Positions 3,730 to 58,952 of a DNA stretch of 64,000 nt are shown in pieces. Position 1 is the first letter of the stretch; every line of letters starts with the position of its first letter. The notes below the pieces were generated by a model. It saw nothing but the letters and a program-made list of their open reading frames with translations, did not search any database and was not told the DNA's origin. The stretch is from an uncultured Chromatiales bacterium (lineage in GTDB: Bacteria; Bacteroidota; Ignavibacteria; SZUA-365), in contig CAZWNO010000002.1 of the NCBI GenBank assembly GCA_964635845.1, positions 44,901-108,900 on the forward strand, in the 5' to 3' direction. The position numbers and the translations under genes are program-made.

Positions 3730-3818
3730 TGGATACGCCGACCTGACCCGGCCTGGCATCCGCGGACGGAACGATCCCGCACCGCACTCTGTTTCTCTTT
3801 CTTGAACGACAGGCAGTT

Positions 3819-4739: not shown

Positions 4740-4761
4740 ACATGAATCGAAAGCACGTTCG

Positions 4762-36749: not shown

Positions 36750-36841
36750 AATCCGCGGCAGGTGGCCGGCGCGGCACCCGCGCGTTTCTGATTGACGGCC
36801 ATCAGTTTCCCGCACCGCGACAGCGAAAATTTTCTTATACT

Positions 36842-36877
36842 TGAAGGATACCGAATTTCGGTATCCTTCATTTTTTT
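36842..36877 (+). terminator. rho-independent terminator (GAAGGATACCGA-att-TCGGTATCCTTC + ATTTTTTTC)
   Basis: 12-bp perfect stem, 3-nt loop, run of 7 T. Between the second S8 gene and lgt. Confidence 0.65.
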
Positions 36878-36895
36878 CACACGAAAGATCCGCCC

Positions 36896-37675: not shown

Positions 37676-37759
37676 TTTCTGCAGGGACCGCGGCTGCCTC
37701 TCGACAGGAATCGCGCCTGCTCCGCGGTGGGTGCGGCATGGCTGCAACTCCTCCGCGTG

Positions 37760-38815: not shown

Positions 38816-39136
38816 TATTCTCCTACCGAGTCCACGAAGAGAACGGGATGGACCAATCAATCTGCCTGGATAGTGCGGGCTTCGGTGCGGGCTGAGACTT
38901 CCGGAAAAGTAAATTATGAAGAATACTGTACTTGCGTCCTGCATGGAAGTGACGTACGGGGAGAAAAGGATGGTTTGGGGGATAGGGGTGGACAATCCCG
39001 ACCACGGAAAGGTTACAGAAATTCTCACATTTTCCTAACGGAATCTTGTTTTTATCGTAAATTCCGTGTAATCTTCGTGACCTGCACAGGCAGAGCCTAT
39101 CGCATTCCATAGATATGTTCCACTCCGGAGAAAACG

Positions 39137-40067: not shown

Positions 40068-40856
40068 TCAGTCGATCGCAGCGATGCTCAGCACTTCCCC
40101 GACGTCGTGCCGCGAGGCGATGACGACGCGCGGACGAAATCCCTCGCGCCGTGCGAGCACTGCCTCCACTTCGCGCAGCACGACTTCCGGCGTGTTGTTG
40201 TTTTCGCTCAGATGGCCGAGGATGAGCGTGCGGAGACGGCCGTTGCAGCACTGCTCCACCAGTTCCATCGCCTGGATGTTGGAGAGATGTCCGTGCGGCG
40301 CGCGGATACGCTCCTTGAGGTATTGCGGGTAGGGACCGTGCTCGAGCATGTACTCGTCGTAGTTGCTCTCAAGCAGCGCGGCGTCGACTTCACCCAGCAG
40401 CCGCGCCACGTCCTCGTTGCCTACGCCCAGGTCCGTGACATAGAGGAAGCGCCTCTCCCCGATCTGAACGAGAAAGAACACCGGATCGGCCGCGTCGTGG
40501 GACTTGGCGAAAGCCTGCACGGTGATGTCCTCCACCCTCACCGTTTCGCCGCGGCCGATGAAGCGGTGCCCCTTGTGCGGACGGCTGCGCCACATCCCGC
40601 GCCATGTGGCCTCGGTCAGAAAGGTCGGCACACGATAGAGTTTCGTGGTCACCGGCAGACCGCGCACGTGGTCGGTGTGTTCGTGTGTGACGAAGATGCC
40701 GCGCACGCTGTGCAATGACCGGCCGTGCAGCTTGAGCCGCTGCTCGATCTGCCGGCGCGAGATGCCGCAGTCGAGCAGCACCGCCGCGCCGCTGCGCTGC
40801 GACTCGACGTAGACGGCGTTACCGTTGCTTCCGGAATTCAGGACGATGATGTTCAT
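40068..40856 (-). CDS. MBL-fold metallo-hydrolase
   Basis: HxHxDH motif (VTHEHTDHVRGL). Start set at MNIIVLNSGSNGN. Confidence 0.75.
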   Translation of the reverse strand: MNIIVLNSGSNGNAVYVESQRSGAAVLLDCGISRRQIEQRLKLHGRSLHSVRGIFVTHEHTDHVRGLPVTTKLYRVPTFLTEATWRGMWRSRPHKGHRFIGRGETVRVEDITVQAFAKSHDAADPVFFLVQIGERRFLYVTDLGVGNEDVARLLGEVDAALLESNYDEYMLEHGPYPQYLKERIRAPHGHLSNIQAMELVEQCCNGRLRTLILGHLSENNNTPEVVLREVEAVLARREGFRPRVVIASRHDVGEVLSIAAID

Positions 40857-40928
40857 GCGTGTTTTCCAGAGGCAGTGCCGAACGGTATGGCCATCCTGCA
40901 CTGCTTCATGTCAGAGGAATCGGAATGC

Positions 40929-43058
40929 TCAGCCGACACCAAGTTCCCGGAGAAGAAAATCCGCTTTTCCGAGATACCTGGCGACGAACAGCACGTAGCG
41001 GATGTCGGCGCCGATGCTGCGGCTGTAGTCCTCGCTCCACTGGTAGTCGTTGACGGTGGCTTCGTAGGCGCGGTCGAAGTTCACGCCGACCAGCTCGCCG
41101 CGCGCATTGAGCACCGGACTGCCGGAATTGCCACCCGTGGTGTCCATGTTGTAGAGCATCGCGACAGGAACGTCTTCGAGCAGGGCATCTTCGTAGCTCT
41201 TGTCGTAGTTCCGTGTGTTGTAGAGTTCCACGAGCTGCGATGGCGCGTTGAACGGTTCCACGCCGGAGTTTTTCTCGATGAGCCCGCGAAGCGTGGTCTG
41301 CGGTTTGAAGTATGTGGCATCGGCCGGGGCGTAACCGCGGATATAACCATAGGTCAGCCGCAGCGTGCTGTTGGCGTCGGGAATGAAATCCTTTTTCTGC
41401 CATGCCATTTTCGCATCGATGAATTCGGCTTCGAGTCGTTTGAGTTCGCCGTCGCGGGATCGGCGCCGCGCGATGATCTGCTCGTTGATCGCGTTGAGAT
41501 CGCGCGCGAGCACGACGAAGGGATCCTTGCTCGCGGCGAGCGTCTCCCTGCTCCACCCGGCGATCACGTTGATGCCCGCATGCGACGCGATGGCGCTCTT
41601 CTGAAACGCCTCGCGCACGCGGATGACGGCCGTCGCGCGGTCCGCATCCTTGCCGATGAGCGCGGGAAGCGAGGCCGGCTTCTGCGTGGCGGGCAGTTTC
41701 GAGAAGTCATGCAGCAGCGTGGCGAGGAATTCGAGTTCCGTGCCCTGGTGAATCTGGCCGTACTGCGCTTCGATGAACTGCTGCATGCGTACCGCCTTGT
41801 CCCCGGTGACATCCCCTTTTTCCACGGACTTCATGACGGAGGCGAGCATCGAGATGTAATGGTTGCGTGCGATCTGTGTGGCGATGATCTCCTGCAGCGC
41901 CGTCGCCTCGTACTCTGCGTAGACACCGCGCAGTTCGGCCTGTGTTCTGCTGAATTTCGCACGGAGTTCCGGTGTGCTCTCGATATGCTGTTGCAGCGCG
42001 GCTTCCTCGGCGCGGCGCTTGTCGACCAATCCGAGGCGGCGCAGTCCCTGCAGCTTGCCCTTGTAGTTCTTTGTTGCGTTGGCGAGCCCCTTCGTAAGAT
42101 CGGCGAACGCCAGCTGCAGCGTGCGATCGCCTTCCGAGGCCTTGTCCAGGGTCTCGATCATATAGTCATAGCGCGCGGAGAGGTACGGCAGAATGACATT
42201 CTGATAGAGCGCGATATAGTCCGATGTCTTGTGCCTGTAAGTGCGTCCGGGATAGCCGAGAATGAACACGAAATCACCTTCGCTCACTCCCTTCGGCGCG
42301 ACCTTGATATGGCGCTTGGGCTTGTACGGTACGTTTTCCTTCGCATACGTGGAGGTTTTCCCGTCGGGAGCGACGTAGGCGCGAAGGAAGGAGAAGTCCC
42401 CTGTGTGCCGCGGCCAGACCCAGTTGTCGATCTCGCCGCCGAAGTTGCCCACGGCGAGCGGCGGCACGTACACCAGGCGGACGTCGAGGATGATGCGATA
42501 GGTGAAGAGGACATAGCTCTTGCCGGGAAACATCTCCGAGACTTCACAGGAGATATTCTCGCGGCCCGCTTCCTCGTCCTTCGCCAGCTTCTTCATCTGC
42601 TCCTGTATCGCGTCGCTGCGCTGTGCGGGAGTCATGCCGGCGGTGACCACGCCGAGCACTTCTTTCGACACGTCGCGATACGCCTCGGTGATCCGACAGT
42701 TGTATCCGCGCGCGGGGAGTTCCTCGTCGCGCGTGGCGGCGGTGAAACCGTTTCGGAGGTAGTCATGCTCCGGCGTGCTTGCGTCGGTGACGCCGCTGAA
42801 GGCAATGTGATGGTTGGTGAGTATCAGGCCGTCCGCGGAGACGAATTCTCCCGTGCCGCCTCCCACCTGGCAGATGGCGTCGACGAGGCTGACGCCGTCG
42901 GGATTATATATTTCGGATGCATCGATCTGCAATCCTTTGGCCTTGAGGTCGATGCGTGCGATCTCGCTCAGAGGGTACATACCCTCGTCAGCGGTGAGTC
43001 CGACGACCAGGAAAAGGGATAACGCGACGAGAGTGGCCAGGCGAACGGTGCGGAACAT
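40929..43058 (-). CDS. S46 family dipeptidyl-peptidase (DPP7/DPP11-like), secreted
   Basis: Signal peptide MFRTVRLATLVALSLFLVVG. N-terminal GGTGEFVSADGLILTNHHIAF (catalytic His region) and C-terminal GGNSGSPVLNARGELVGVNFD (catalytic Ser) of S46. Confidence 0.85.
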   Translation of the reverse strand: MFRTVRLATLVALSLFLVVGLTADEGMYPLSEIARIDLKAKGLQIDASEIYNPDGVSLVDAICQVGGGTGEFVSADGLILTNHHIAFSGVTDASTPEHDYLRNGFTAATRDEELPARGYNCRITEAYRDVSKEVLGVVTAGMTPAQRSDAIQEQMKKLAKDEEAGRENISCEVSEMFPGKSYVLFTYRIILDVRLVYVPPLAVGNFGGEIDNWVWPRHTGDFSFLRAYVAPDGKTSTYAKENVPYKPKRHIKVAPKGVSEGDFVFILGYPGRTYRHKTSDYIALYQNVILPYLSARYDYMIETLDKASEGDRTLQLAFADLTKGLANATKNYKGKLQGLRRLGLVDKRRAEEAALQQHIESTPELRAKFSRTQAELRGVYAEYEATALQEIIATQIARNHYISMLASVMKSVEKGDVTGDKAVRMQQFIEAQYGQIHQGTELEFLATLLHDFSKLPATQKPASLPALIGKDADRATAVIRVREAFQKSAIASHAGINVIAGWSRETLAASKDPFVVLARDLNAINEQIIARRRSRDGELKRLEAEFIDAKMAWQKKDFIPDANSTLRLTYGYIRGYAPADATYFKPQTTLRGLIEKNSGVEPFNAPSQLVELYNTRNYDKSYEDALLEDVPVAMLYNMDTTGGNSGSPVLNARGELVGVNFDRAYEATVNDYQWSEDYSRSIGADIRYVLFVARYLGKADFLLRELGVG

Positions 43059-43242
43059 TGTGCGAAGCCTCCGATGATAATCACATTTGAACGTGCTGCC
43101 GCGGGGCATGCATCGTTCAAGATAAGGAAAAAGCGAGAGCGGCGAAAAGATGCGGGTGCATGCCCCGCATGAATGGCACGGAATCACGATTTCCGTTATT
43201 TTTCAATTGACGCAGCACCTACATACAATGCCGGGATCACAG

Positions 43243-45066
43243 ATGACGAAGCACCTTTCCATCACATCGATTGTCTTTCTGAACGTACTATTCTTTCTCG
43301 CGGCACTGCTCCCGGCCCAGACTGTCGTCGACACAACGCTCGTGATGAGCGACGGCGTACGGATCGACGCGCTATACGCACTGCCCGTCACACCTGCACC
43401 GCCCGGCGGTTATCCCGCCATCGTGCTGGTGCATGGTTTCGCCGGCTCGAAGAATAACAACCGATCACTCGCGCTCGATTTCGCCCGCGAAGGTTACGCG
43501 GCCACGGCGTACAGCGTGCGCGGCCAGGGCGCCTCCGAAGGATTGTTCGAGTTCTTCACCGCGCCCCGCGTGCTCGACGACCTGCGCGAGAATATCCGCT
43601 TCACCATGCAGCTGCGGGGCAGAATCAATCCGGAGCGTGTGGCGGTCCTCGGCGCGTCGCAGGGAGGACTGCATGCATGGAATGCCGCAGCCTATGGCAT
43701 GGGTGCGCGCTGCGTCGTGTCGATCATCGCCAACGGTCGCGCGGAGGAGAACTGGCTCGAGAATGGCGCGCTGAACTGGACTTTCACCGCCGCGACGATG
43801 ACTCCCAACGTGCGCTTCGAGCCCGCGGTGACCGCGCTCCTGCAGCAGGCGCGCGCGAGCGGTGATTTCGGCTCGATCCAATCCTATCTTCGCGATCACT
43901 CGACGAACTCCCTCGAGAGCGGAGTCACGACCCCGACGCTGATCCTCGTCAGCTATCGCGACGGCTTCTTCAACCAGAACGCGGCGCTGCGTCAGCTCCA
44001 CGGTGTGACCGCGCCCAGGCGCATCGTGCTGTATCCGGGGGGACACGAACTCCCGCCCGATGCCCAACAGGAGGGGTACGTCATGGACGTCCTGTACCGC
44101 TGGCTGGACTACTGGCTGAAGGATGAGACCGCCCTGGCGTCCGTGGCATCGCCCGACAGCACGGTGGTGTTCTTCGACGGCGGCACGGGGGCACGTCGCA
44201 TGTATGCCGGCCAGCAATCGGAGCGATGGCTTCTCCCGGGCGATCCGCCGCCGCAGGGGATGAAACTGCTCGATCTGTACTTCGATGAAGCGGGAATCAC
44301 TCTGCAGCCTCCGCCGAACCGCAGCGAACGCGTGATCACATATATCAACGTGCTGGGCTCCACGCCGATTTCCTTCCGGACTGCGCCGATGTCACGGGAT
44401 CTCACCGTCCTGCCGCCTGCGGGGAAAGCACAGCTCCGCGTGCGGGCGACAGGAGAGCAGTATCAGATGAATGTGCTGCTCTATGACGTCGATCCCTCCG
44501 CGGGCACCCGGATCCCGATGAATCGCGGTCATTCGCAGTCGGCGGATCCGAATACCGAGCGCACCATGGATTTCGATCTGACGAGCATCCTGCACACCGT
44601 CAGAGCGGGACATGTCATCGAAGTGCTCGTGCACGGCGGCACCGCCCTGATCCCCGACCAGTCGAGCAATTTCGGGAACGTCGTGCTCGGTCCTGTACAT
44701 CCTTCGCTCAACACCTTCTTCATCGGAGGCGAGAATCCCTCGCGCATTTCCCTGTACGTCGAGGACGAAAGCACGGTCGCGGTCGCACCGCTCGGTGAGA
44801 CAGAGCACATGCGGCTCTATCCTTCGTGGCCGAATCCCGTCGACGACCACGCGACACTTTCGTTCGCACTGGACGAGGCCATGCCCGTGCGGCTGTCGGT
44901 ACATGACAGCATGGGGAGAGAGATTGCGGTGCCCGTGGAAGGATTCATGGAGGGGGGGCGGCACAGTGCGACGATGTCCGGAGCGGAGCTGCCGAACGGA
45001 TTGTACATCTACAGGCTGACGGCTGCGGGAGAAGTGTCACACGGAAAATTTATCATCAGGCATTGA
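43243..45066 (+). CDS. alpha/beta hydrolase of the CocE/NonD (S15 X-Pro dipeptidyl-peptidase-like) type with a C-terminal T9SS-type sorting domain
   Basis: Signal peptide. VLVHGFAGSK..LGASQGG nucleophile elbow. C-terminal beta-sandwich. Tail LYPSWPNPVDDHATLSF..VHDSMGREI..LPNGLYIYRL. Confidence 0.72.
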   Translation: MTKHLSITSIVFLNVLFFLAALLPAQTVVDTTLVMSDGVRIDALYALPVTPAPPGGYPAIVLVHGFAGSKNNNRSLALDFAREGYAATAYSVRGQGASEGLFEFFTAPRVLDDLRENIRFTMQLRGRINPERVAVLGASQGGLHAWNAAAYGMGARCVVSIIANGRAEENWLENGALNWTFTAATMTPNVRFEPAVTALLQQARASGDFGSIQSYLRDHSTNSLESGVTTPTLILVSYRDGFFNQNAALRQLHGVTAPRRIVLYPGGHELPPDAQQEGYVMDVLYRWLDYWLKDETALASVASPDSTVVFFDGGTGARRMYAGQQSERWLLPGDPPPQGMKLLDLYFDEAGITLQPPPNRSERVITYINVLGSTPISFRTAPMSRDLTVLPPAGKAQLRVRATGEQYQMNVLLYDVDPSAGTRIPMNRGHSQSADPNTERTMDFDLTSILHTVRAGHVIEVLVHGGTALIPDQSSNFGNVVLGPVHPSLNTFFIGGENPSRISLYVEDESTVAVAPLGETEHMRLYPSWPNPVDDHATLSFALDEAMPVRLSVHDSMGREIAVPVEGFMEGGRHSATMSGAELPNGLYIYRLTAAGEVSHGKFIIRH

Positions 45067-45122: not shown

Positions 45123-46811
45123 CTAGTTGACGAACTGCGCTGCGTAGTGCTTCGCGGTGAGTTTTTCGCCCGTGGCGTTTTCGATCATGTCGTTCCAGAG
45201 CAGTGTGCGGCCGGGCTTGAAGACATTGTCGATGAGGAAGGTCCCCACCTCGGTGCGGCCGACATAGGCTTCGCGGCGCGGATCCTCCGATTTCAGAATC
45301 TTGCCGCAGATATGGGCATGCAGCTGCGACGCGAGCAGTTCTCCCATCAGGTAGTTGTGATAGTAGGCGGGATACAGGGCGACATGAATCTTCGACGCCC
45401 AGTCGGGATTGCTGCGTCCCGCGGGTTTCCGGATCATCTGGTATTTTTCCACCAGCTGCCACCAGAGCGCGTCGAGGTCCTGATCGGGATTTTCGTACAG
45501 GGCTTTTTCAAAGCGATACATCACCTGCGCCCAGCGGCTGAATACCAGCTGTTCCAGACGCAGGGATTTGAACATCAGTTCGGCCGCCTCTTCCGCCCGA
45601 TTGCCAGGTACACCCGCGATCCGCGTCAACCAGACGGGATTGCTCGCGAGGCGCCCGAAGAGCATCGCGATCGCCTCGGTCGTAAACGTGTGCGCCGGTT
45701 CGCGCAGCGTCCACGGCACGCTGCGATCGTTGAATTTGTCGTAGACCGCGTGGCCGTATTCGTGCAGCGTCGTGTTCATCCAGTTGTATGTCGGCTTGAT
45801 ATTGCAGACCACCCGCACGTCACCTTGCCGGTCGATGTCCGTGCAGTACGCATGCTGGTACTTCCCTTCCTTTTCGAAGAGATCGCTCTTCTCCACGAGA
45901 TCGTCGATCGGGAGCCCGAGGCCTGCGTAGTACTTCTTCGCCAGCGCGACGATGTCCGTTTCTTTATAGAAGACATCGAGGTCTGTTTCGTAGATTTTCG
46001 GCGCCTCCTGGAAAAAACGGTTCTGGTAATGCCACGGCATCAGATCTTCGACCGCGATGCCGCAGCGTTTGGCGAGCACGACGTCCATCTCCGCCTTCAG
46101 CTGCGCGAAGCTGCCGGCGGTCAGTTCGTCGAGTTCGTCGAACAGCGCCGCGATCTGCTCGGGGTCCTGTTCGCTCAGTTCCAGTTTCATCGCGTGGAAA
46201 TTGGCGAAGCCGAGTTCCCGCGCGGCGCTGTTGCGCAGGCGCACGAGCCTGAGCACCTCCGGCGCGGCGATGCGCCCGATTTCCTTGCTCGCCTTCCACG
46301 CGGCCTCGAGTTCGGTGCTCCTGGTCGACGTACGCAGGATCTCCTCGATTTCGTTGTCGGTCAGCGTCTTGCCGTTCACCACGGCGCGGAAGGTCGAGAA
46401 TTTCTTTTCGTTTTCGTTCTGGAGGCGTATCATCTCCTCCAATTTCCGCTCGTCGATCTGCCGTTCGACATACTCGAAGTACAGTACGTTGAGCTGCCGA
46501 TTCAGGATGGGATCGGTCAGGACCTTCGCGTCGCGGATGCGCTTGAGAAGCTTGAAATCAGTCTTGTTCGCATAGATCTTCGTCAGTTCCACTTCAAGAT
46601 CGGCCGCAAGCGTGTAGTCTTCTGCTTTCCCTGAAATGGTGGCGTTGAAATAGGCGAGCGCCGCTTTCTCGCTCAGCGGAATTGCCTTGCTCTCGTATTT
46701 CTTTAGAAAAGTTCTGAATTCCTCGGTCATACGTTCCTTCTCCGATGTTCCGCAAGACATGAGCAAACCAAGAAAGGCAAGAGCGGGCAGAATAATGCGC
46801 AGTCGATACAT
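45123..46811 (-). CDS. M2 family (angiotensin-converting-enzyme-like) peptidyl-dipeptidase lipoprotein
   Basis: Lipobox LLMSCG. HEYGHAVYDKF..WTLREPAHTFTTEAIAMLFG parallels the ACE HEMGH..LRE..HEAIGD zinc site. ACE-like ..NATISG.. near the N-terminus. GGAGG 4 nt upstream of the ATG. Confidence 0.75.
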   Translation of the reverse strand: MYRLRIILPALAFLGLLMSCGTSEKERMTEEFRTFLKKYESKAIPLSEKAALAYFNATISGKAEDYTLAADLEVELTKIYANKTDFKLLKRIRDAKVLTDPILNRQLNVLYFEYVERQIDERKLEEMIRLQNENEKKFSTFRAVVNGKTLTDNEIEEILRTSTRSTELEAAWKASKEIGRIAAPEVLRLVRLRNSAARELGFANFHAMKLELSEQDPEQIAALFDELDELTAGSFAQLKAEMDVVLAKRCGIAVEDLMPWHYQNRFFQEAPKIYETDLDVFYKETDIVALAKKYYAGLGLPIDDLVEKSDLFEKEGKYQHAYCTDIDRQGDVRVVCNIKPTYNWMNTTLHEYGHAVYDKFNDRSVPWTLREPAHTFTTEAIAMLFGRLASNPVWLTRIAGVPGNRAEEAAELMFKSLRLEQLVFSRWAQVMYRFEKALYENPDQDLDALWWQLVEKYQMIRKPAGRSNPDWASKIHVALYPAYYHNYLMGELLASQLHAHICGKILKSEDPRREAYVGRTEVGTFLIDNVFKPGRTLLWNDMIENATGEKLTAKHYAAQFVN

Positions 46812-47119
46812 GAAACCTCCGGTAATGATCAGCGCCGGGTTGCGGTTGACGCGTAAATTACCATGTTCACGCGTAAATTCCGATTCCCTGCTGCCCTCCT
46901 CCAGGCCGTCTGCAGCGATTTTCCGGTCCGCGGCCTCCGAAGTCCCGACAACCTGCAGCGGTTCTCCGGTCCGTGGCTTCCGATGTCCCGATGGCCCGCC
47001 AATTGCCTGTCGCTTGGCTGTAACCTTCACTATATTGAGGTGTTATTATGAACGTGTGCTGTTTTACATACGTTCATTGAATGGATCACTGATACCGAGT
47101 ACCTGGAATCGCCGCCGCA

Positions 47120-47683
47120 ATGTCCGGAAACAAAACAGATAGCATCCCGGACGCTGAACTGTTTTACCGACTGTCTGGTGAAAAAGAGATAGCGGAAGCA
47201 GCCTTCACGGAGCTCTATGCCCGCTACGGAGGCCGGGTGTTCGCATACTGTCTGCGCTTTCTGGGTCATCGCGACGAAGCGTTGGACGTGTATCAGGAGA
47301 CATTCATCCGCTTTTTCGAAAGCGCGAAGAAACGGCGTGAAATGACGAACGTACCGGGCTACCTTCTGAAAATCGCCCGGAATCTCTGCCTCAACTGCAA
47401 GAGAAACAAGAAACAGACCGTGGAATTCGAGGATTACCAATCCCTCGTGCTCCCCTCGACAACCGAGAAAACCGAATTTCTGCAGCTTATCACGACGGCG
47501 ATGGAGATGCTGCCCGACGAGTATCGCGAGGTGTTTGTCCTTCGGGAATACGAAGGTCTCAGCTATGCGGAAATCGCGGAAATCGTTGATGAGTCCCTCT
47601 CGAACGTGAAAGTTCGCATTTTTCGCGCAAAGCAGAAAATACGCGGCATTCTGGCCCCTTATATAGCGGAATTCAGTGAATGA
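47120..47683 (+). CDS. ECF (sigma-70 family, group 4) RNA polymerase sigma factor
   Basis: Sigma-2 region (LDVYQETFIRFF) and sigma-4 region (LSYAEIAEIVDESLSNVKVRIFRAKQKIR). Confidence 0.85.
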   Translation: MSGNKTDSIPDAELFYRLSGEKEIAEAAFTELYARYGGRVFAYCLRFLGHRDEALDVYQETFIRFFESAKKRREMTNVPGYLLKIARNLCLNCKRNKKQTVEFEDYQSLVLPSTTEKTEFLQLITTAMEMLPDEYREVFVLREYEGLSYAEIAEIVDESLSNVKVRIFRAKQKIRGILAPYIAEFSE

Positions 47684-47712
47684 GCACAAATGACCTGTCA
47701 GGATAGACGACG

Positions 47713-48876
47713 ATGAGCAACCAACACGAGTACATGGATTCGCGAATGCTGCATGCATTCATGGACGGAGAGCTGGGAGGCGCCCAGGAAGAGGTGCTGT
47801 TCCTGAAACTCTCCTCCGATGCGGAACTGCGTTCAGAAATGCAGGATCACATCGCCATCCGGAAGGCGATACAGCACGACATCGAGTCATTCACACCGCC
47901 GGCATCGGCCACTGCTGCGATTTTTGCGACGCTTGGCTTCACCATTCCCGCTGCTACGGCCACCGCTGCATCCGCGGGGAGCAGCTCCGCCGGACTCGCC
48001 GGGCTGCGCGGCATGGGCTTCAGTGTGGGCTCGGCCATCCTGGCCACCGTCGCCGCAGTGCTGTTGTACATGCAGTTCCCCCTGCCGTTCGCAGCCTTCG
48101 ATCGCGTCGTGGAGCGGGTGGTGAGCACTCCGTCAGGTACGGTCGTGCTCGAGGAATCGGCACCGCTCGCCGACCTCCCCGTCGCTGCCGCGATGCGCAG
48201 CTCGGACCGTCTCAGGCATGCCGATATTCCGGTATTCGCGGCAGGAGTACCGGCCGCGGCGCCGGTGACTGTGGAACGTCGCGACGTGCGTCCGCGCGAC
48301 ATGGAACTTCTTGCGCAGGCGATGGAGTCAATGGACGCCCCCGACCATGTCCGGGCGGATCAGGTTCGATTCTTCGATCTCATCCCGGCTCCCGACGGCG
48401 TCACGCTGTATGCGCGCAACGTCGCGCTGCAGTCCGATCCGACACCGACGGTGGTGTCGCAATCCGATACATGGTTCAGCAACATGAACCTGGGCGTGCT
48501 CTATTCGATCGGCGAGCATCATTCAATCGGTATAGAAGGCGGAAGAGAGGCGTTCTCACAGCATTTTTCCGGATTTGAAAATGGCGTGCGCGTGCGGTAC
48601 GAGCAGAATCCCCTGACATACTGGGCGACGGCGGTATACCAGTATACGGGAGGTGCCCTGCTCCCGCACGTTCACCCATTTGCCCAGATTCAGGCCGGCG
48701 GCGCATTTCAGCTCGGCCCTCTCGCCCGCGCCACGCTCGGGCTCAAGCTCAAACCCTTTGATCGCATCGCCGTGGTGCTCGGCGCGGAAGGGAGCGTCCT
48801 GATGTACCGCTTCCAGAACAACTGGTTCAATACAAATAAACTGGGCCTGACCTACGGCGTCTCGTACGAGTTCTGA
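47713..48876 (+). CDS. anti-sigma-factor-like membrane protein with a C-terminal beta-barrel-like domain ending in ..YEF
   Basis: N-terminal HAFMDGEL anti-sigma motif. Starts 30 bp after the sigma gene. One TM-like segment (SVGSAILATVAAVLLYMQF). C-terminal roughly 180 aa with alternating hydrophobic beta-pattern and a terminal Phe. Confidence 0.5.
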   Translation: MSNQHEYMDSRMLHAFMDGELGGAQEEVLFLKLSSDAELRSEMQDHIAIRKAIQHDIESFTPPASATAAIFATLGFTIPAATATAASAGSSSAGLAGLRGMGFSVGSAILATVAAVLLYMQFPLPFAAFDRVVERVVSTPSGTVVLEESAPLADLPVAAAMRSSDRLRHADIPVFAAGVPAAAPVTVERRDVRPRDMELLAQAMESMDAPDHVRADQVRFFDLIPAPDGVTLYARNVALQSDPTPTVVSQSDTWFSNMNLGVLYSIGEHHSIGIEGGREAFSQHFSGFENGVRVRYEQNPLTYWATAVYQYTGGALLPHVHPFAQIQAGGAFQLGPLARATLGLKLKPFDRIAVVLGAEGSVLMYRFQNNWFNTNKLGLTYGVSYEF

Positions 48877-48879
48877 TAC

Positions 48880-49623
48880 ATGCAGAGTACACGCGCCATT
48901 GCGTTCGCTTCGCTCGCGGTGCTGATTGCGCTCGTTTTCGGCGCCTGCGACTCGCCCCTCGACGTGGAAACGCCGCGCAATCGTCTGGTCGACCGTGTGT
49001 CCATCCCGCTCTCTGACGATATCGGGAGCGCCGTATCCGTGGTGCTGCCGCCGGACACGTCGAGCGAGGATACGACCGCACTGAGCGTGCATTTCTCCGT
49101 GGCGCTCGTCGTTGACGCGAGCGGCAGTATCTCGGCGCAGACCGCGCTCGCATTCCGTGACGGCTGCCACGCCGTACTCGATTCGCTCGATGGGGAGAAG
49201 GACGAGGGCGTGGTGGTTTTCTTCACGCAGACGGCAACGATCGCCCAGCATCTGACCTCGCAGGTCTCGCTTCTGCGCAGCGCCGTCGACGGCATCCCCA
49301 CAGACGGCGCGACTGCCATGTGGGACGGTATCTACAAGGCGATGCTCGAACTGCAGTCGAAAGCCACGCATACGCACCGCGCGGTGATCGTCATCACCGA
49401 CAGTGACGACAACTCCAGCACAACGGGCACGCCGGCCAAGATCACCACACTTGGACAGAGCGCGAAAATTCCCGTATTTTCAATTGCTCTTCGCTCGACA
49501 AGCCAGGAAGTGGTGCTACGCGGCATCGCGCTGGCGACAGGCGGACAGCATTTTCCGCAGCCGTTCCTCTCGCAGATCGACGAGATCTGCCGGGGAATCG
49601 CGCACGAGCTGAAAACCCCATGA
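48880..49623 (+). CDS. VWA (von Willebrand factor A) domain lipoprotein
   Basis: Lipobox LVFGAC. MIDAS-like DxSxS (VDASGSIS). ..VVITDSDDNSS.. VWA core. Confidence 0.7.
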   Translation: MQSTRAIAFASLAVLIALVFGACDSPLDVETPRNRLVDRVSIPLSDDIGSAVSVVLPPDTSSEDTTALSVHFSVALVVDASGSISAQTALAFRDGCHAVLDSLDGEKDEGVVVFFTQTATIAQHLTSQVSLLRSAVDGIPTDGATAMWDGIYKAMLELQSKATHTHRAVIVITDSDDNSSTTGTPAKITTLGQSAKIPVFSIALRSTSQEVVLRGIALATGGQHFPQPFLSQIDEICRGIAHELKTP

Positions 49624-49672
49624 CCACAACATATCATCATCGAACAAATGAGGGCATTCAGAGGAGGCAGGT

Positions 49673-50887
49673 ATGATCCGTTTCTCAGGTTTCATGGCAT
49701 GCGTGCTGTCGATTCTCGCAACGTCGCTGTTCGCGCAGACCGAAGCACGCATCACGACGATGCACATGCAGCAGGGAAATCCCGCCGGGCAGTTCACCGT
49801 GTCGGTCCGCTGTAACGGAGAATCGCAGTTTGATCTCCAGAAAAGCCAGCTGGCCGTGACGGACAATGGCATGCCGGTGAATGACTTCGAAATCATCGAG
49901 AGTTCGTCACCGCTGCTGCGCAATCCTTTCTCGGCGGTGCTGGTCATGGACGCCAGCGGCAGCATGATCGGTGCGGGAAACGCCGGAGCGAAAGCCGCCG
50001 GCACTGCATTCGTTGATTTCATGGATGGTTCGGTCGATGAAGCGGCATTGCTCTGGTTCAATCAAACGGTCACGACCTTCCAGCAGATGACGACCATCAA
50101 GCCCATGCTGCTCGCCGCCGTGGCGGCTCTTCCCGCAGAGGGGGCCACCGCGATGTTCGACGCCGCCTGGGCCGGACTGCTCGAGCTGCAGCTGAACGGG
50201 CTCAATCCCAAGAAGGCCGTGTTACTGCTCAGCGATGGCGGCGACAACAGCAGCGTCCGAACGATCAGCGAAGTGATTTCGCTTTCGAATCAGCTGAATC
50301 TCCGTATCTTCACGGTCGGACTGGGCGATCTGCTCGACACGCTGTCGCTCGGCAACATGGCATCATTGACCGGCGGTCTCTATTTCACGACGCCCAACGC
50401 GGTCGATCTTCAGGCGATCTTCACCGAAATCGCGAATTTCATGGGACGTGGCTTCGAGGAACACACGGTCGCATTTACCAGTCCCGACCCTGACGCGGCA
50501 ATGCATGACCTGCGAATCTCCGTGGTCGCCTGCGGTGAAACCGCTGCCGCGACGAAGCAGGAGGCCGCCCTTACGACCACGGGCGTGCGTCATCTGCGTG
50601 GATCGGTGCCGTTCGCGCTCACTCTGGGCCAGAGTGTTCCCAATCCACTCGGATCCTCCGGTGAAGCCGTGATCCCCTTCACGCTGAGCGGAGTGAATGC
50701 ACCGCAGCCGCTGCGGCTCGAGGTGTTCGATCTCCTTGGCCGACGCGTGGCGAAGCTCGTCGATGCTGACGTACATCCCGGCAGCCACACAGCGCGCTTC
50801 GATGCACGGGGACTCGCGCCCGGAATGTATCTCTACCGGCTCAGCAGCGGGAGCGTCGTGACGACGAAGACCATGATCGTGCGCTGA
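49673..50887 (+). CDS. VWA domain protein with a C-terminal T9SS-type sorting domain
   Basis: Signal peptide. MIDAS DASGSM and LLLSDGGDNSS. Tail ..VPNPLGSSGEAVIPFTL..VFDLLGRRV..LAPGMYLYRL. Confidence 0.7.
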   Translation: MIRFSGFMACVLSILATSLFAQTEARITTMHMQQGNPAGQFTVSVRCNGESQFDLQKSQLAVTDNGMPVNDFEIIESSSPLLRNPFSAVLVMDASGSMIGAGNAGAKAAGTAFVDFMDGSVDEAALLWFNQTVTTFQQMTTIKPMLLAAVAALPAEGATAMFDAAWAGLLELQLNGLNPKKAVLLLSDGGDNSSVRTISEVISLSNQLNLRIFTVGLGDLLDTLSLGNMASLTGGLYFTTPNAVDLQAIFTEIANFMGRGFEEHTVAFTSPDPDAAMHDLRISVVACGETAAATKQEAALTTTGVRHLRGSVPFALTLGQSVPNPLGSSGEAVIPFTLSGVNAPQPLRLEVFDLLGRRVAKLVDADVHPGSHTARFDARGLAPGMYLYRLSSGSVVTTKTMIVR

Positions 50888-50910: not shown

Positions 50911-50940
50911 AAAGAGGCTGCCCGTTCGGACAGCCTCTTT
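50911..50940. terminator. hairpin between the convergent VWA gene and htpG (AAAGAGGCTG-cccgttcgga-CAGCCTCTTT)
   Basis: 10-bp perfect stem, extendable with one mismatch. Confidence 0.55.
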
Positions 50941-50963: not shown

Positions 50964-52835
50964 TCAGCCGCGTGTGGCCTTCTCCATGAATTCCATCGCA
51001 CGGCGCACGAAGTCCACCGGATTCTGAAGATTGTCTTCCACGAGCAATGCGCCTTCATACATCTGTTCGACCGCCTGCACCAGCATTGGATCGTCGTGAT
51101 TCTCGCTGTTCATCCGCGCGAGATTTTTCATGAGCGGATGACCCAGGTTGACCTCGAGTATTTTTTTACTCGACGTGAAATTGTTGTCCATCATCTTCAT
51201 CATGCGTTCCATCTGGGCGTCCATACCCGATTTGCCGACCACCAGCGTCGCGACGCTGTCGACCAGGCGCTTCGACTCGATCACGTCCTCGATGCGGTCG
51301 CCGAGAATTTCCTTGCATCGAATCAGGATGTTCTTCGCCTCGCGACCCTTCAGCGCTTCGTCCGATTCGTCTCCGGACTTCTTCGCGATGTCGATATCCG
51401 CCTTTTCGATGGAGTCGATCTTCTTCGACTCATATTCACCCAGTGCCGTGACGGTGAAGAGATCCACGGGGCCGGTGAGGAAAATCACCTCGATGTCATG
51501 CTTCCGGAAATACTCGAGGTTGGGATTGTTCTCGACGACGGCGCGGCTCTCACCCGTGATGTAGTAAATCTCCTTCTGCTCCGCATCCATGGCGGAAACG
51601 TATTCCTTGAACGATGTCATCTTACCCGGGGCCGTCTTGCTCGTCTCGAAACGCATGAGTTCGACGAGCCGGTCCTTGTTCGTGAAATCGCTTCCCAGCC
51701 CGAGCTTCAGATAGTTGCCGAAGTGCGAGAAGAAGGTCGCATATTTTTCAGGATCGGACTTCGACCAATCTTCGAGCATGCCGAGCACACGGTTGGTGAG
51801 GATCTCGCGCATCTTCGCCGTGACGGGACTCGACTGTGTCACTTCGCGTGACACGTTCAGCGGGAGGTCCTCGGTGTCGACGACACCCTTGATGAAGCGC
51901 AGGTACTCGGGTACGAGGTCCTTGCAATCATCCTGTATGAACACGCGGTTGACGTAGAGCTGCAGGCTTTTCTCCTCACGCGGATCGAAATATCCGAACG
52001 GGGGTGCGGAGGGGACGAATACCAGCGCCTTGAAATTGACGCGTCCCTCGATGTGCAGCGAGAGTGAATCCAGCGGTTCGCGGAAGTCTCCTGCCACGAA
52101 CTTGTAGAACTCATCCAGCTCCTCCTTTTTCAGATCCTCCTTCTTCCGCTGCCAGAGTGCGCTGACGCTGTTGACCCTGTCCTTGCCGATGAAAATCGGG
52201 AAGTCGACGAAGTTGGAATATTTCTTGATCAGGTCCTTTATCCTGTATTCATTCGCGAGGTCCTTCGCATCGTCCTTGAGCTTGAAGAAAATGCGGGTGC
52301 CGCGTTCCTTCTTCTCCATCTCCTCGATGGTGAACGTTCCCTCGCCGCGCGACTTCCAGCGCCAGCCCTTCCCATCAGGATCCGCCGACCTGGTCTCTAT
52401 CGTCACTTCATCTGTCACCATGAACACCGAGTAGAAGCCGACGCCGAATTTCCCGATCAGTTCTCCGCCGTCGAATTTCGCCTCGCCGGTTCTTGACTGA
52501 GTGAGAAAATCCAGCGTTCCTGAACTGGCTACCGTTCCGATGCGTGCGATCAAATCCTCGCGCGACATTCCGATGCCGCTGTCCTCCACCGAAAGGTTCT
52601 GGTTCTTCTCGTCGATGTCGATGCGGATGCGAAGCTCCGCATCAGGCTGCAGCACCGGCATGTTCCGCACCTGCATGAAGCGCACTTTGTTGAGCGCATC
52701 CGACGCGTTCGAGATAAGCTCACGCAGGAACACTTCAGGATGGGTGTACAGCGAATGGATGATCAGGTGGAGAAGCTGCTTCATCTCCGCCTTGTATTCG
52801 AATTCCTGCACGGAAGTCTGGTTCGTCTCGGTCAT
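50964..52835 (-). CDS. htpG: molecular chaperone HtpG (Hsp90)
   Basis: HPEVFLRELISNASDALNKVRF (Bergerat ATP-binding N-domain). GVGFYS. Full length. Start set at MTETNQT. Confidence 0.93.
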   Translation of the reverse strand: MTETNQTSVQEFEYKAEMKQLLHLIIHSLYTHPEVFLRELISNASDALNKVRFMQVRNMPVLQPDAELRIRIDIDEKNQNLSVEDSGIGMSREDLIARIGTVASSGTLDFLTQSRTGEAKFDGGELIGKFGVGFYSVFMVTDEVTIETRSADPDGKGWRWKSRGEGTFTIEEMEKKERGTRIFFKLKDDAKDLANEYRIKDLIKKYSNFVDFPIFIGKDRVNSVSALWQRKKEDLKKEELDEFYKFVAGDFREPLDSLSLHIEGRVNFKALVFVPSAPPFGYFDPREEKSLQLYVNRVFIQDDCKDLVPEYLRFIKGVVDTEDLPLNVSREVTQSSPVTAKMREILTNRVLGMLEDWSKSDPEKYATFFSHFGNYLKLGLGSDFTNKDRLVELMRFETSKTAPGKMTSFKEYVSAMDAEQKEIYYITGESRAVVENNPNLEYFRKHDIEVIFLTGPVDLFTVTALGEYESKKIDSIEKADIDIAKKSGDESDEALKGREAKNILIRCKEILGDRIEDVIESKRLVDSVATLVVGKSGMDAQMERMMKMMDNNFTSSKKILEVNLGHPLMKNLARMNSENHDDPMLVQAVEQMYEGALLVEDNLQNPVDFVRRAMEFMEKATRG

Positions 52836-53129
52836 GATCGAATTCTCTTCTTTCTGGTACATCTCCAACAGCATATAATTTACTACTGTGGCATGGCACG
52901 GGACAAGAACCGGCGAAGTACCCATCCTGCGCCGCCGATAGTATCCTCCTGCCATTCACAGGAAGCGGGCGTTGGATCTTTTTTCCATCACGGGAATTGT
53001 TTGCGCCTTCCTGGGCGTTTGGACTATGTCAGGGGATACACGATAATTCAGAGGAGCATCATCCCTTGTGAGTCCATTGACAGCAACTCTCATACATTCA
53101 CAACACCACCTTCAGGAGGAACGCTTCCC

Positions 53130-57493: not shown

Positions 57494-58825
57494 TCACCTT
57501 CCGCCGCAGGTCAGACAGAAATTTACTCCCTCGCGTTGTGCGGGATACTGCATCCACTGGCCGACGAGATGGGATACCCCCTCCTCGCCCTGGTGCCATA
57601 TGACGAGATACCAGCCGTCGGTGTCCATCACGATCGAGGGTTTCTTCCGCGCAAGGCGGTCATCGCGATCGTTGACCCTGACGTTTCCTCCTATGCGGGT
57701 TCCGTCGCGTCCGTACGGTTGGAGATAGGTGTCGCCTCTCTGATTGGTCACCGTGTTCCTGTAATCTTCCCAGCACACGACAATCCCGCCCTTCCCGTCG
57801 CCGTCGACCGCAGGGAGCCGCTGCCAGCGATTTCCATCGTCATCATTGACCAGCTCGGCAGGCGAGAACGTTCCGCTGCGGAGATCCGCAATCCTGCGAT
57901 AGATATTGCTGGTCCCTGTACGGTAATCCTTCCATGCGAAGAATGCGGAATCCCCCGGCAGACAGACAGCGTTGATGATCGTGGTCATGGCTTTCCGTTG
58001 TGCCGAATCGATCAGCACGTTGCGCGCTGCATCAGCGCCGAAACAGTGGTAGTAGAACTTCCATGCACCATCGATCCTGTTGTCGGGCCAGAGAAGCAGG
58101 ACGTGATCTCCATTGTCCGCTGCAATACGCGGCTGTCCCTGCAATGCCGCCATGCCGTCGTCGTTGACGAGCACGTTTTTCCCGACAGGATGACCTTCCG
58201 CGTCGAAGCGTTGTGCAACGATGTCTGCATTGCCGCTGCGGTAATCCTGCCAGACGACGATGATCTCCCCTTTCGCATTGCGTCCGGCCGCGGGCAGGAC
58301 TCCCGGCGCAATGTGATCCGAAACGTCGAACACTGCTTCCGAGCGTCCGCTGCGATGCACGACGCGCGCGGTGATGACATGCCTGCCGTCATTGCTTCGC
58401 TGCCAGACGAGAAGTACCGTACTGTCCGTGAGGAAAACGGCGGCAGGACGTTCCTCCTCCGTTCCGGCATCGGGCACACCCAGATCAAGCACGCGAATGT
58501 CTTCCCGCTGTCCTCGACTGAGAAATGCGCCGCGCACGGCAGCCCCGTATCGCGTCCGTTCCGACCAAGCGCAGAACCACAGGCCGGCATCGCTGCCTGC
58601 CAATGTCGCGTGCCAGGCGTTGCGCACGCTGTCAAGCTGCATACGTACACTGTCAGACCGCGTTCGGACACTGTCAGACCGCCCGTGCGCAGGGTTCTGA
58701 TTCCGCTGAGCGCCTGTGAGCGCGCTGTCGGACCACATACGCAGGAGCGTATCTGCGCCATCCTGCGTGAGCCCGATACCGGTGGACAGGAGAAACAACA
58801 GCGCCGTGGCGAGCAATCGATTCAT
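57494..58825 (-). CDS. secreted repeat protein, probable beta-propeller with recurring W-x-D-Y-R blades
   Basis: Signal peptide MNRLLATALLFLLSTGIG. Repeats VVWQDYRSGNADI.., FFAWKDYRTGTSNI.., VVCWEDYRNTVTN... N-terminal RSDSVR x3 mini-repeat. Confidence 0.5.
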   Translation of the reverse strand: MNRLLATALLFLLSTGIGLTQDGADTLLRMWSDSALTGAQRNQNPAHGRSDSVRTRSDSVRMQLDSVRNAWHATLAGSDAGLWFCAWSERTRYGAAVRGAFLSRGQREDIRVLDLGVPDAGTEEERPAAVFLTDSTVLLVWQRSNDGRHVITARVVHRSGRSEAVFDVSDHIAPGVLPAAGRNAKGEIIVVWQDYRSGNADIVAQRFDAEGHPVGKNVLVNDDGMAALQGQPRIAADNGDHVLLLWPDNRIDGAWKFYYHCFGADAARNVLIDSAQRKAMTTIINAVCLPGDSAFFAWKDYRTGTSNIYRRIADLRSGTFSPAELVNDDDGNRWQRLPAVDGDGKGGIVVCWEDYRNTVTNQRGDTYLQPYGRDGTRIGGNVRVNDRDDRLARKKPSIVMDTDGWYLVIWHQGEEGVSHLVGQWMQYPAQREGVNFCLTCGGR

Positions 58826-58952
58826 ATCCGGAATATAGCAGTTACACACTCGGGACGCACGGGATGGAGATCTGACTTTGCATTTACCGTCAACCCCGTG
58901 TAATTTTTAAGATTGGACGAATGTTTACGTGGAAACTTCTCCACCAGGTACC

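Follow-up and report, generated by a model that had tools for sequence, protein, structure and literature searches.

The described system closest in architecture to the one reported here is that of Dma1 from Bacteroides. The N-terminal 40 aa of Dma1 bind Das1; a TM helix and then a disordered region connect them to an 8-stranded barrel, which is found in OMVs; dual-tag fractionation places the protein in both membranes, and heat-modifiable migration has been shown (PMC10927553). The adjacent gene of the Bacteroides locus encodes the lipoprotein NigD2, a member of the regulon. Anti-sigmas of the Dma type (dual membrane-spanning) have been known only since 2024, when they were described in gut Bacteroides.

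Other ECF systems share some features with this arrangement. In FecI-FecR-FecA systems a membrane-spanning anti-sigma also controls an ECF sigma factor from the outer membrane, by means of a FecR domain, a TonB-dependent transducer and an N-terminal signalling extension. The proteobacterial RpoE-RseA-RseB-RseC operon has the order sigma, anti-sigma and periplasmic accessory proteins, and RseA ends in the periplasm. VWA domains are associated with ECF signalling in the ECF289 systems, where they are part of the anti-sigma itself as a DUF3520 fusion (PMC7826278), and in P. gingivalis the small T9SS-CTD surface protein PorA is tied to the ECF pathway PorXY-SigP (PMC7712824).

Organisation and conservation of the four-gene operon

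The 64-kb window, i.e. the whole stretch of DNA analysed, comes from a Kapaibacterium/Ignavibacteria-like genome of the Bacteroidota group. It carries on the + strand four consecutive genes, all of them present as ORFs where the preliminary description had placed them: a sigma gene (47120-47683, 187 aa), the anti-sigma gene P2 (47713-48876, 387 aa), the gene of the VWA lipoprotein P3 (48880-49623, 247 aa) and that of P4, a VWA protein with a T9SS tail (49673-50887, 404 aa). The gaps are 29, 3 and 49 nt, so that of the spacers given earlier (30, 3 and 49) the last two stand and the first is one nucleotide shorter. Both flanks are formed by opposite-strand genes, the downstream one being htpG, which is convergent with P4. 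Between these two lies a GC-rich hairpin with A and U tracts on either side (50911..50940, no strand assigned); the region past P4 folds with -39.4 kcal/mol over 96 nt (z = -3.4), and the hairpin is a probable bidirectional terminator closing the operon. A terminator was seen after P4 only, and the promoter motif described below had no match between the four genes.

The order sigma-P2-P3-P4, whose conservation in relatives was crucial to the original proposal, is kept in 15 other distinct loci, taken from GTDB-representative genomes and reached via P2 homologues, although P2 is only 43-73% identical there. The upstream flanks of these loci vary (GH20, FAD oxidoreductases, M2/M3 peptidase). Because the order persists at such divergence and behind different upstream flanks, a chance juxtaposition is rejected, and the four genes are a genuine, conserved operon. 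It is extremely unlikely, in our judgement, that the VWA genes lack a functional link and stay beside the sigma/anti-sigma pair merely through retained synteny. The downstream genes htpG and ahpC are also syntenic in several relatives, a sign of general synteny retention, but this does not account for the variable upstream flanks, nor for the tight junctions within the clade (3 nt or an 11-nt overlap) and the combination of one promoter motif with one terminator. Moreover, in one relative (L004) an insertion of three genes separates P4 from htpG and leaves the four-gene unit unbroken.

The product of the first gene matches Sigma70_r2 (1.7e-13) and Sigma70_r4_2 (3e-19) in Pfam and the sigma70-ECF model TIGR02937 (88 bits, cutoff 42.9), by which its assignment to the group 4 (ECF) sigma factors is confirmed. 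As proxies for the ECF21 group, to which Das1-type sigmas belong, the Bacteroidota-type ECF models were considered: NF058625 (107 versus 130 bits) and TIGR02985 (102 versus 126 bits) are its best or third-best NCBIfam matches and stay below their cutoffs, a difference from the Dma1 locus. In Kapaibacterium/Ignavibacteria MAGs whose P2 is only 27-33% identical, the sigma reaches 55-60% identity, and in lineages of this type it has the look of a conserved, RpoE-like core regulator. Separately, we note that database entries from these lineages at times carry the annotation RpoE for the sigma.

P2, a putative anti-sigma with a predicted barrel of its own

The key feature of the operon is P2, a putative anti-sigma which is predicted to begin in the cytoplasm and to end in an outer-membrane barrel that is part of the same protein. 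Residues 1-80 (47713..47952, + strand) form a cytoplasmic anti-sigma-like helical domain with the motifs LHAFxDGEL... and FTPPAxATxAIFxxLGF, for which AF2 predicts helices at residues 3-17, 23-35, 37-60 and 64-73 with a pLDDT of about 80. Pfam and NCBIfam assign P2 to no family; the only match of the N-terminus is a sub-threshold one to RseA_N in Pfam (E 0.012, residues 12-60). Among 47 members of the P2 family RseA_N matches 13 and zf-HC2 likewise 13, all other Pfam matches being singletons. The N-terminal peptide pattern also retrieves conventional anti-sigmas in other phyla, where an ECF sigma gene is nearby in seven of eight loci and directly upstream in six; one of these matches reaches the zf-HC2 cutoff. 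All 30 tabulated family loci, and two further ones, have a co-oriented sigma gene immediately 5' of P2. The N-terminal anti-sigma motif proposed earlier is thus supported by weak, family-wide profile matches and by the adjacency to the sigma gene, and the domain probably sequesters the sigma.

Residues 97-121 (48001..48075, + strand) are the single predicted inner-membrane helix, an AF2 helix with the hydrophobic stretch GFSVGSAILATVAAVLLYMQF. They are followed by an Ala/Val/Pro-rich periplasmic linker, predicted to be disordered (residues 122-229, 48076..48399, + strand), in which residues 123-219 have a pLDDT below 50 in the AF2 model. The linker is the most variable and indel-richest stretch of the family alignment (A1), and its length varies among family proteins of 368-567 aa. 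The C-terminal residues 230-387 (48400..48876, + strand) are predicted to fold into an 8-stranded OmpA/NspA-like beta-barrel, which ends in an invariant ...TYGVSYEF.

P2 and Dma1 agree in having an ECF sigma gene directly upstream. As far as predicted for P2, they also agree in their parts: a short region at the N-terminus that binds the sigma, a single TM helix, an extended disordered linker in the periplasm and an 8-stranded outer-membrane barrel at the C-terminus. In both cases the neighbouring gene encodes a lipoprotein, which is NigD2 in Bacteroides and P3 or a small lipoprotein in the P2 family, and both come from the Bacteroidota group. The likeness is one of architecture. Dma1 is annotated as Pfam OMP_b-brl_2, whereas neither P2 nor the listing of families for the 47 members shows a match to it; one of the members has a weak OMP_b-brl match (E 0.046). 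P2 belongs to a separate family from Kapaibacterium/Ignavibacteria-type MAGs with at least 1,800 clusters at 50% identity, so that a Dma-like architecture would occur in a large, sequence-distinct family of deep-branching lineages.

That P2 resides in both membranes is suggested by two features, the similarity of its fold and a C-terminal beta-signal-like motif; alternating strand hydrophobicity does not by itself show whether a barrel is soluble or lies in a membrane. Were the barrel soluble, P2 would be a conventional single-pass anti-sigma ending in a lipocalin or avidin-like periplasmic domain that binds a small ligand short of the outer membrane, which we regard as very improbable.

With the barrel placed in the outer membrane, P2 would resemble the FecI-FecR-FecA systems in controlling an ECF sigma from there, but with receptor barrel and anti-sigma in one polypeptide. 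P2 has no match to the FecR or DUF4974 profiles, the operon has neither a FecR domain nor a TonB-dependent transducer nor an N-terminal signalling extension, and no TonB-dependent receptor is encoded within it or right next to it. The resemblance to the RpoE-RseA-RseB-RseC operon lies in the gene order, in the weak RseA_N similarity of P2 and, in all likelihood, in autoregulation and activation by proteolysis, both of which we infer for the P2 operon; it ends where P2 adds an outer-membrane barrel, and RseB and RseC are unrelated to the VWA proteins. The preliminary description had seen here an undescribed variant, in which VWA modules take the place of the TonB-dependent transducer. This substitution is not supported: since P2 carries a predicted OmpA/NspA-like barrel, the outer-membrane component would already be contained in the anti-sigma polypeptide, and the VWA genes are clade-specific. 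The word 'undescribed' holds only in part: anti-sigmas that cross the whole envelope have been in the literature since 2024 as the Dma class (PMC10927553), while the P2 family and its VWA/T9SS partners were not found in our literature searches.

The VWA proteins and the exchange of partners

P3 is a VWA lipoprotein, as had been proposed (Pfam VWA, E 2e-10). Its lipobox ...VFGA-C23, with an Ala-Cys pair that is at least 90% conserved in 17 aligned sequences, precedes a conserved mature N-terminus, CDSPLDVETPRN, and its MIDAS is intact (DASGS...T...D). The acidic run at +3 to +5 that marks the LES of Bacteroidota surface lipoproteins (C-x-K-(D/E)2, SDDDD, SDDFE; PMC5080379) is absent from P3, which reads C-D-S-P-L-D-V-E-T-P-R. 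P4, which is 33% identical to P3 across the VWA domain, consists of a Sec signal peptide (MIRFSGFMACVLSILATSLFA, followed by QTE), an N-terminal domain, a VWA domain with intact MIDAS (Pfam VWA, E 1.3e-8) and a C-terminal sorting domain, as is typical of T9SS type A cargo. The tail reaches 33.8 bits with TIGR04183 (cutoff 23), in keeping with the earlier call, and stays slightly under the cutoff of Pfam Por_Secre_tail (24.2 versus 27 bits). A Shine-Dalgarno-like GGAGG lies 7 nt 5' of the P4 ATG. The best-matching VWA subfamily, the acidobacterial-type TIGR03436, is sub-threshold for both proteins (P4 62.2 and P3 48.5 versus 81.25 bits). In domain composition P4 resembles Mfa5 of P. gingivalis, a surface adhesion protein with a VWA domain and a T9SS CTD (PMC7835359; PMC7712824, Table 2), but Mfa5 is a fimbrial tip protein of about 1,200 aa from the mfa operon without linkage to a sigma/anti-sigma pair. 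Unlike in ECF289, the VWA proteins are separate from the anti-sigma, being secreted or lipidated, and it is a predicted barrel that forms the C-terminus of the anti-sigma.

The pair of VWA lipoprotein and VWA-T9SS protein is confined to one clade of the P2 family. In other family loci this position is taken by unrelated small lipoproteins that lack a VWA domain, in some cases accompanied by large T9SS adhesins, or is empty; a lipoprotein gene follows the P2 homologue in about 24 of 29 loci, often together with T9SS surface adhesins. Partners of P2 are in this respect VWA proteins or T9SS adhesins, as opposed to the NigD-like lipoprotein of Dma1. Individual loci vary as well: L029 lacks P4, L028 has the lipoprotein only and L021 two copies of P4. 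Since the sigma/P2 pair is kept while the downstream positions vary, the VWA genes are accessory and clade-specific, and these adhesion-type proteins seem to be partners or outputs particular to the lineage rather than a substitute sensor.

In an updated form of the original proposal, the VWA pair could also be the input module of a trans-envelope sensor: the MIDAS of P4, displayed by the T9SS, would contact a surface ligand, P3 would dock on or through the barrel or linker of P2, and both together would gate the proteolysis of P2. We consider this unlikely. The four-gene unit is strictly conserved in the clade with tight or overlapping junctions, and the orthologues keep the MIDAS motifs DASGS, GATA and D(S/G)xDN (17 aligned sequences for P3, 16 for P4). 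There is also a precedent in PorA, a T9SS-CTD protein acting upstream of an ECF pathway, which differs in that it acts by way of a two-component system, is encoded apart from the sigma and has a FimH-like lectin domain rather than a VWA domain (PMC7712824). An obligatory receptor is, however, not expected to vary as in L029, L028 and L021, and most of the family does without VWA genes, some loci without any downstream partner.

The lipoproteins themselves offer a further hint. All those encoded after P2 homologues, VWA or not, begin with C-x-[SN]-P-x-[DE]-[LIV]-[DEN]-[VTI], a motif that is absent from the other lipoproteins in the window. The motif is short, and a profile of the P3 N-terminal module had no significant match among the non-VWA lipoproteins (best E 0.22), which weakens its use as an argument for the input module; its strict conservation nevertheless hints at a physical coupling to P2. 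A lipoprotein threading through a barrel is known from RcsF, which passes through OmpA/OmpC. By analogy, the lipoprotein N-terminal peptide, with the consensus C-x-S-P-x-D-[LIV]-[DE]-[VT], might dock on or thread through the P2 barrel. In this clade a periplasmic VWA lipoprotein and the T9SS VWA adhesin would then be coupled to the barrel and would report MIDAS-dependent surface attachment straight to the ECF sigma by way of a single polypeptide, as a modular trans-envelope sensor whose heads (VWA, Ig/fn3 adhesins, FG-GAP) were exchanged in evolution. This more specific picture is rather doubtful. If the VWA pair does belong to the sensor, it would represent a new mode of adhesion sensing.

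Promoter motif and proposed signalling

About 73 nt 5' of the sigma ATG, in the region which the preliminary description had singled out, lies an ECF-type promoter-like motif, CTGTAACCTTC-N11-GTGTTAT (47018..47046, + strand), with the -35 element GTAACC at 47020-47025 and the -10 element GTGTTAT at 47040-47046. Its columns are invariant across an alignment of four otherwise divergent sigma upstream regions, and it is matched once in the window, the chance expectation being 0.00-0.01. It is also conserved in relatives: a variant of GTAAC[CAT]-N13-16-(GTGTTA/TGTTAG/GTCTAT/GTCAAT...) lies 5' of the sigma gene in 27 of 30 tabulated family loci, or 24 of 27 without three duplicate loci.

Taken together, we are moderately confident that the locus is a Dma-type ECF signalling operon, with P3 and P4 as co-induced outputs and not as the primary transducer. 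The helical domain of P2 would keep the sigma at the inner membrane, which P2 would cross once; the disordered linker of about 100 residues would traverse the periplasm and the protein would end as an 8-stranded beta-barrel in the outer membrane. A disturbance of the outer membrane or cell surface would lead to proteolysis of P2, and the freed sigma may transcribe its own GTAACC-N14-GTGTTAT promoter and so raise the whole operon including P3 and P4, putative clade-specific envelope or surface binding proteins which perhaps also modulate P2. The mechanism published for Dma1 is of the same kind (PMC10927553). Since transcription of P3 and P4 would start, together with that of the sigma gene, at the predicted promoter of the sigma, the two are better explained as outputs or modulators than as the primary sensor, although co-transcription is compatible with a sensory or modulatory role.

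A second copy of the motif was found in the relative L001, with an identical extended -10 element (TCATGTGTTAT), about 190 nt 5' of a gene for an FG-GAP protein with a T9SS tail. This suggests that surface T9SS proteins are within the sigma regulon. A different link to secretion would be a monitor of T9SS stress, in which stalled cargo, either P4 or the T9SS adhesins that take its position in other clades, builds up in the periplasm and causes the cleavage of P2 and a corrective response. T9SS-tailed genes do recur beside the sigma/anti-sigma family or behind its promoter motif, and for P. gingivalis a feedback of the PorA type on the expression of the T9SS has been put forward (PMC7712824). 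But the genes found behind the promoter motif include none for the T9SS machinery, and the neighbourhood of many family loci is free of T9SS genes. T9SS cargo genes are, moreover, very common in the genome, with at least four more in the window, and their proximity is therefore weakly informative. We hold such a monitor to be very unlikely.

Under the Dma-type reading the lipoprotein peptide, the T9SS adhesins and the promoter motif provide specific candidates, open to testing, for the inputs and outputs that the Dma class still lacks, and regulons can be read from the predicted motif. Right after the -10 element, in the predicted 5' leader, there is an inverted repeat, ATGAACGTGTG / CATACGTTCAT (47048..47077, no strand assigned), with 11-nt arms that are 91% complementary. 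Repeats of the GTTCAT...ATGAAC type occupy the same leader in some relatives.

Layout and predicted promoter of the four-gene unit

The four consecutive forward-strand ORFs of a preliminary description are present, and the ORF listing places them at exactly the coordinates claimed there: an ECF sigma gene (47120-47683, 187 aa), the gene for the anti-sigma-like protein P2 (47713-48876, 387 aa), that for the VWA lipoprotein P3 (48880-49623, 247 aa) and that for the VWA-T9SS protein P4 (49673-50887, 404 aa). The intergenic spacers are 29, 3 and 49 nt, and the unit is flanked on the opposite strand by an M2/M3-type peptidase lipoprotein gene upstream (45123-46811) and htpG downstream (50964-52955). 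Profile searches bear out the labels proposed for the first, third and fourth product. The sigma factor matches Sigma70_r2 and r4_2 and exceeds the cutoff of TIGR02937, P3 is a VWA protein, and P4 joins VWA to a sorting domain for T9SS type A, which TIGR04183 recognizes at 33.8 bits (cutoff 23). The lipobox of P3 (...VFGA-C23) has an Ala-Cys pair which is at least 90% conserved in an alignment of 17 sequences. The VWA domains of P3 and P4 are paralogous (33% identity) and both keep the MIDAS residues DxSxS...T...D. Matches of P4 to TAL-effector in the PDB sequence search were discarded as spurious, no aligned stretch passing alone. The sigma protein is 100% identical to one on record from an NCBI/Logan source.

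An alignment of the sigma upstream regions from four divergent loci contains one invariant block, CTGTAACCTTC-N11-GTGTTAT (47018-47046), which has a single site in the 64-kb window (0.00-0.01 expected by chance). The family-wide motif, GTAAC[CAT]-N13-16-(GTGTTA/TGTTAG/GTCTAT/GTCAAT), has one copy ahead of the sigma gene in 27 of 30 tabulated loci, or in 24 of 27 after dropping three duplicates. GTAAC at -35, a GT-rich -10 and an inter-element spacer of 14 nt is the form of ECF-dependent, autoregulated promoters. Because this motif is single and upstream, with no copies between the four genes, and because a strong hairpin with A and U tracts on either side lies behind P4 (50911-50940, z = -3.4), the four genes would most simply form one sigma-dependent transcript.

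Directly after the -10 element lies an inverted repeat with 11-nt arms, ATGAACGTGTG/CATACGTTCAT (47048-47077), which could serve as an operator or form a hairpin in the leader. A reading of this repeat as a promoter (GAAC-N17-CGT) was dropped, since it is the GTAACC/GTGTTAT motif that is phylogenetically conserved. In some relatives the corresponding leader contains repeats of the form GTTCAT...ATGAAC, and in many the sigma start codon is immediately preceded by a conserved GCCGTCGC(A/C)ATG. The divergent intergenic region also holds two adjacent 20-nt direct repeats, GTTGACGCGTAAATTACCAT / GTTCACGCGTAAATTCCGAT (46845-46884), which adjoin the start (46811) of the M2/M3 peptidase lipoprotein gene.

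One related locus (L001) has a second copy of the promoter motif on its reverse strand (2548-2574), with an identical 11-nt extended -10 (TCATGTGTTAT), about 190 nt upstream of a gene (621-2357) for an FG-GAP-repeat protein with a T9SS tail. This placement suggests that T9SS surface proteins may belong to the regulon. Ahead of this copy the heptamer ACGTTTC is repeated in tandem four to five times. A second copy in another locus, L028, was given no weight, as by our own estimate it does not exceed what the degenerate pattern would yield by chance.

Anatomy of P2 and comparison with Dma proteins

The organization of P2 was read from an alignment of 37 homologues, on which AlphaFold2 was also run. 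A conserved N-terminal block (residues 1-80, with LHAFxDGEL... and FTPPAxATxAIFxxLGF) is modelled as four helices (pLDDT ~80) and is followed by a hydrophobic segment (residues ~97-121) in the form of a long helix. The Ala/Val/Pro-rich stretch behind it (residues ~122-229) is hypervariable and modelled as disordered (residues 123-219, pLDDT <50), while the well conserved C-terminal block (residues 230-387) forms an all-beta domain (pLDDT ~90) with the invariant ending ...GLTYGVSYEF. The beta-signal of BAM substrates is a C-terminal G-x-x-Y-x-F with terminal Phe, and the end of P2 fits this pattern. Fully extended, the linker of ~107 residues could span ~35 nm, a distance that exceeds the periplasmic width. 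A barrel that is soluble in the periplasm is the less likely reading of this domain. A PDB sequence search with P2 gave no match. Within the linker the juxtamembrane periplasmic motif ERVVSxP....IEExPALxDLPV (48109-48183, residues ~133-157), a candidate protease or partner-binding site, is kept in the VWA clade despite the otherwise variable, disordered surroundings.

The anti-sigma motif which had been proposed for the N-terminus of P2 is weakly supported by profiles when the window protein is taken alone (RseA_N, E 0.012, below threshold), but it gains strength across the family: RseA_N and zf-HC2 each match 13 of 47 members (best E 4.8e-5 and 0.003, respectively) and are the only recurrent Pfam families among them, all other matches being singletons. 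No Pfam or NCBIfam family was found above threshold in the P2-family members scanned. A genome scan with N-terminal peptide patterns also retrieved eight loci from other phyla (labelled Rhodothermales, Anaerolineales, Phycisphaerales, Burkholderiaceae and others), in which the match is confined to residues ~5-100. An ECF sigma gene is nearby in seven of these eight and directly upstream of the matched ORF in six; one of the matched ORFs attains the gathering score of zf-HC2 and another three match zf-HC2 weakly. As all but one have an ECF sigma gene close by, these loci lend independent support to a predicted anti-sigma domain at the P2 N-terminus.

This organization is that of a known class. 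[quoted passage not shown] By predicted function and architecture the window operon is Dma-type, while its membership is not established by sequence: Pfam OMP_b-brl_2 gives no signal with P2, and the sigma factor does not reach the cutoffs of the ECF models for Bacteroidota. The operon is not a FecIRA-type triad in which VWA modules replace the transducer, as had been suggested, nor is it a categorically new mechanism.

Spread of the family and exchange of downstream genes

A full HMMER scan of the P2 profile over 1.84 billion representatives reveals 1,839 clusters at a threshold of E <= 1e-3, of which 652 also reach E <= 1e-30. Of the 150 best matches, most are full-length and the remainder appear as separate N- and C-terminal stretches; these 150 proteins measure 368-567 aa, bar one fragment of 266 aa. 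Where source names are present they are Bacteroidota, Ignavibacteria or Kapaibacterium MAGs. All entries of the named protein database that match a profile from the broader alignment A3 come from Bacteroidota MAGs and are called 'hypothetical protein', and cluster look-ups yield a single additional name, 'Ignavibacteria bacterium'. In the NCBI taxonomy Kapaibacterium belongs to Bacteroidota, and Ignavibacteria to the sister phylum Ignavibacteriota.

In total 38 loci were compared with the four window proteins by phmmer. The sigma gene lies directly upstream of the P2-family gene in all 30 loci encoding one, and in two further loci, in a sample which is biased towards motif-bearing relatives because the genome loci were gathered via the closer P2 alignment (A1). 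In distant loci the sigma factor still shares 55-60% identity with that of the window, and P2 27-33%. The conservation of gene order, an open point of the preliminary description, holds among closer relatives: sigma, P2, VWA lipoprotein and VWA-T9SS protein follow each other in 15 of 16 distinct loci with a P2 at least 43% identical to that of the window. These four-gene loci differ from one another in their upstream neighbours, and mere synteny of the sigma/P2 pair with the VWA genes is a less likely explanation.

Downstream of P2 the loci vary. P4 is tandemly duplicated in L021 (7937-9145 and 9273-10481) and missing in L029, and the more distant L028 has the VWA lipoprotein as the only partner. 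In distant loci the place after P2 is taken by small lipoproteins (190-240 aa) that lack a Pfam family, to which L019, L025 and L027 add a ~940-aa protein with a T9SS-tail-like C-terminus (in L019 with He_PIG, fn3, CarboxypepD_reg and Por_Secre_tail domains), and L040 and L041 have no same-strand gene after P2. The VWA-pair clade represents ~7 of the 1,839 representative P2 clusters. Since the sigma/P2 pair is retained while the downstream genes vary, the pair is the ancient core, with two exchangeable downstream positions, filled in one clade by the VWA pair. The family is usually paired with a lipoprotein of conserved N-terminus and frequently linked to T9SS adhesins. At 2667-5799, directly upstream of its sigma/P2-family pair, L040 harbours a VIT-VWA gene and an exosortase (EpsH) gene; a VWA protein, though of a different type from P3 and P4, is thus encoded close to this sigma family here too.

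In the literature on Dma proteins and on anti-sigma factors with von Willebrand and T9SS proteins we did not find the P2 family of these Kapaibacterium/Ignavibacteria-type lineages, its pairing with a conserved-N-terminus lipoprotein, its linkage to T9SS adhesins, an operon of this type with VWA and VWA-T9SS genes or the predicted GTAACC/GTGTTAT promoter motif.

Possible roles of P3 and P4

In the most likely mechanism the sigma factor would be sequestered at the inner membrane by residues 1-80 of P2, which is predicted to span both membranes, and a perturbation of the outer membrane or surface would, by analogy to Dma1 and RseA, lead to regulated proteolysis and sigma release. The freed sigma factor would then induce its own operon from the promoter motif, and with it P3 and P4. 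Their intact MIDAS sites predict that both are metal-dependent binding proteins. P3 is predicted to be lipid-anchored; its placing in the periplasm is plausible rather than proven, because it has no classical acidic Bacteroidota lipoprotein export signal (LES). P4 is predicted to be a T9SS-exported protein, probably attached to the surface.

We favour P3 and P4 as co-induced outputs or modulators, because they are dispensable across the P2 family, vary in copy number and lie downstream of a putatively autoregulated promoter, and because NigD2, the adjacent lipoprotein of Bacteroides, belongs to the regulon there. Among the rival readings, the strongest makes them inputs to the sigma pathway. 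Every lipoprotein directly after a P2 homologue, VWA or not, starts with C-x-[SN]-P-x-[DE]-[LIV]-[DEN]-[VTI] (P3 residues 23-33; loci L017-L030), for example CDSPLDVETPRN, CQSPTDLNVDR, CSSPMELDVSR and CKSPMDIDDG. The C-x-[SN]-P motif is absent from the other window lipoproteins noted (two from a scan and the M2/M3 peptidase). That this start is common to all of them, whatever the globular domain, speaks for inputs, as does PorA, a T9SS-CTD protein acting upstream of an ECF pathway. However, the similarity ends after ~9 residues, and the partner genes are variable. A profile of the P3 N-terminal module has no significant match to the non-VWA lipoproteins (E 0.22), therefore the shared feature is the ~9-residue motif only. 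The operon nominates candidate inputs as well as outputs for Dma signalling, which is relevant to the fields of ECF signalling and the Bacteroidota envelope.

Less likely, the system is a sentinel for T9SS stress; T9SS cargo is very common in the source genome. The window itself encodes two tandem paralogous proteins of ~1,000 aa with an S8 subtilase, a sortilin/BNR domain and a T9SS tail (30599-33598 and 33738-36749), and further T9SS-tailed genes lie at 28518-30458 (reverse strand, BNR) and 43150-45066 (forward strand, S15/alpha-beta hydrolase). Rfam and tRNA scans found no tRNA, rRNA or Rfam family above gathering score in the whole window (1-64000). Large ORFs without a Pfam match at E <= 1e-4 are located at 40725-43022, 37760-39028, 36746-37747, 57536-58903 and 19080-21194, the last with a lipobox (LLLAA-C).
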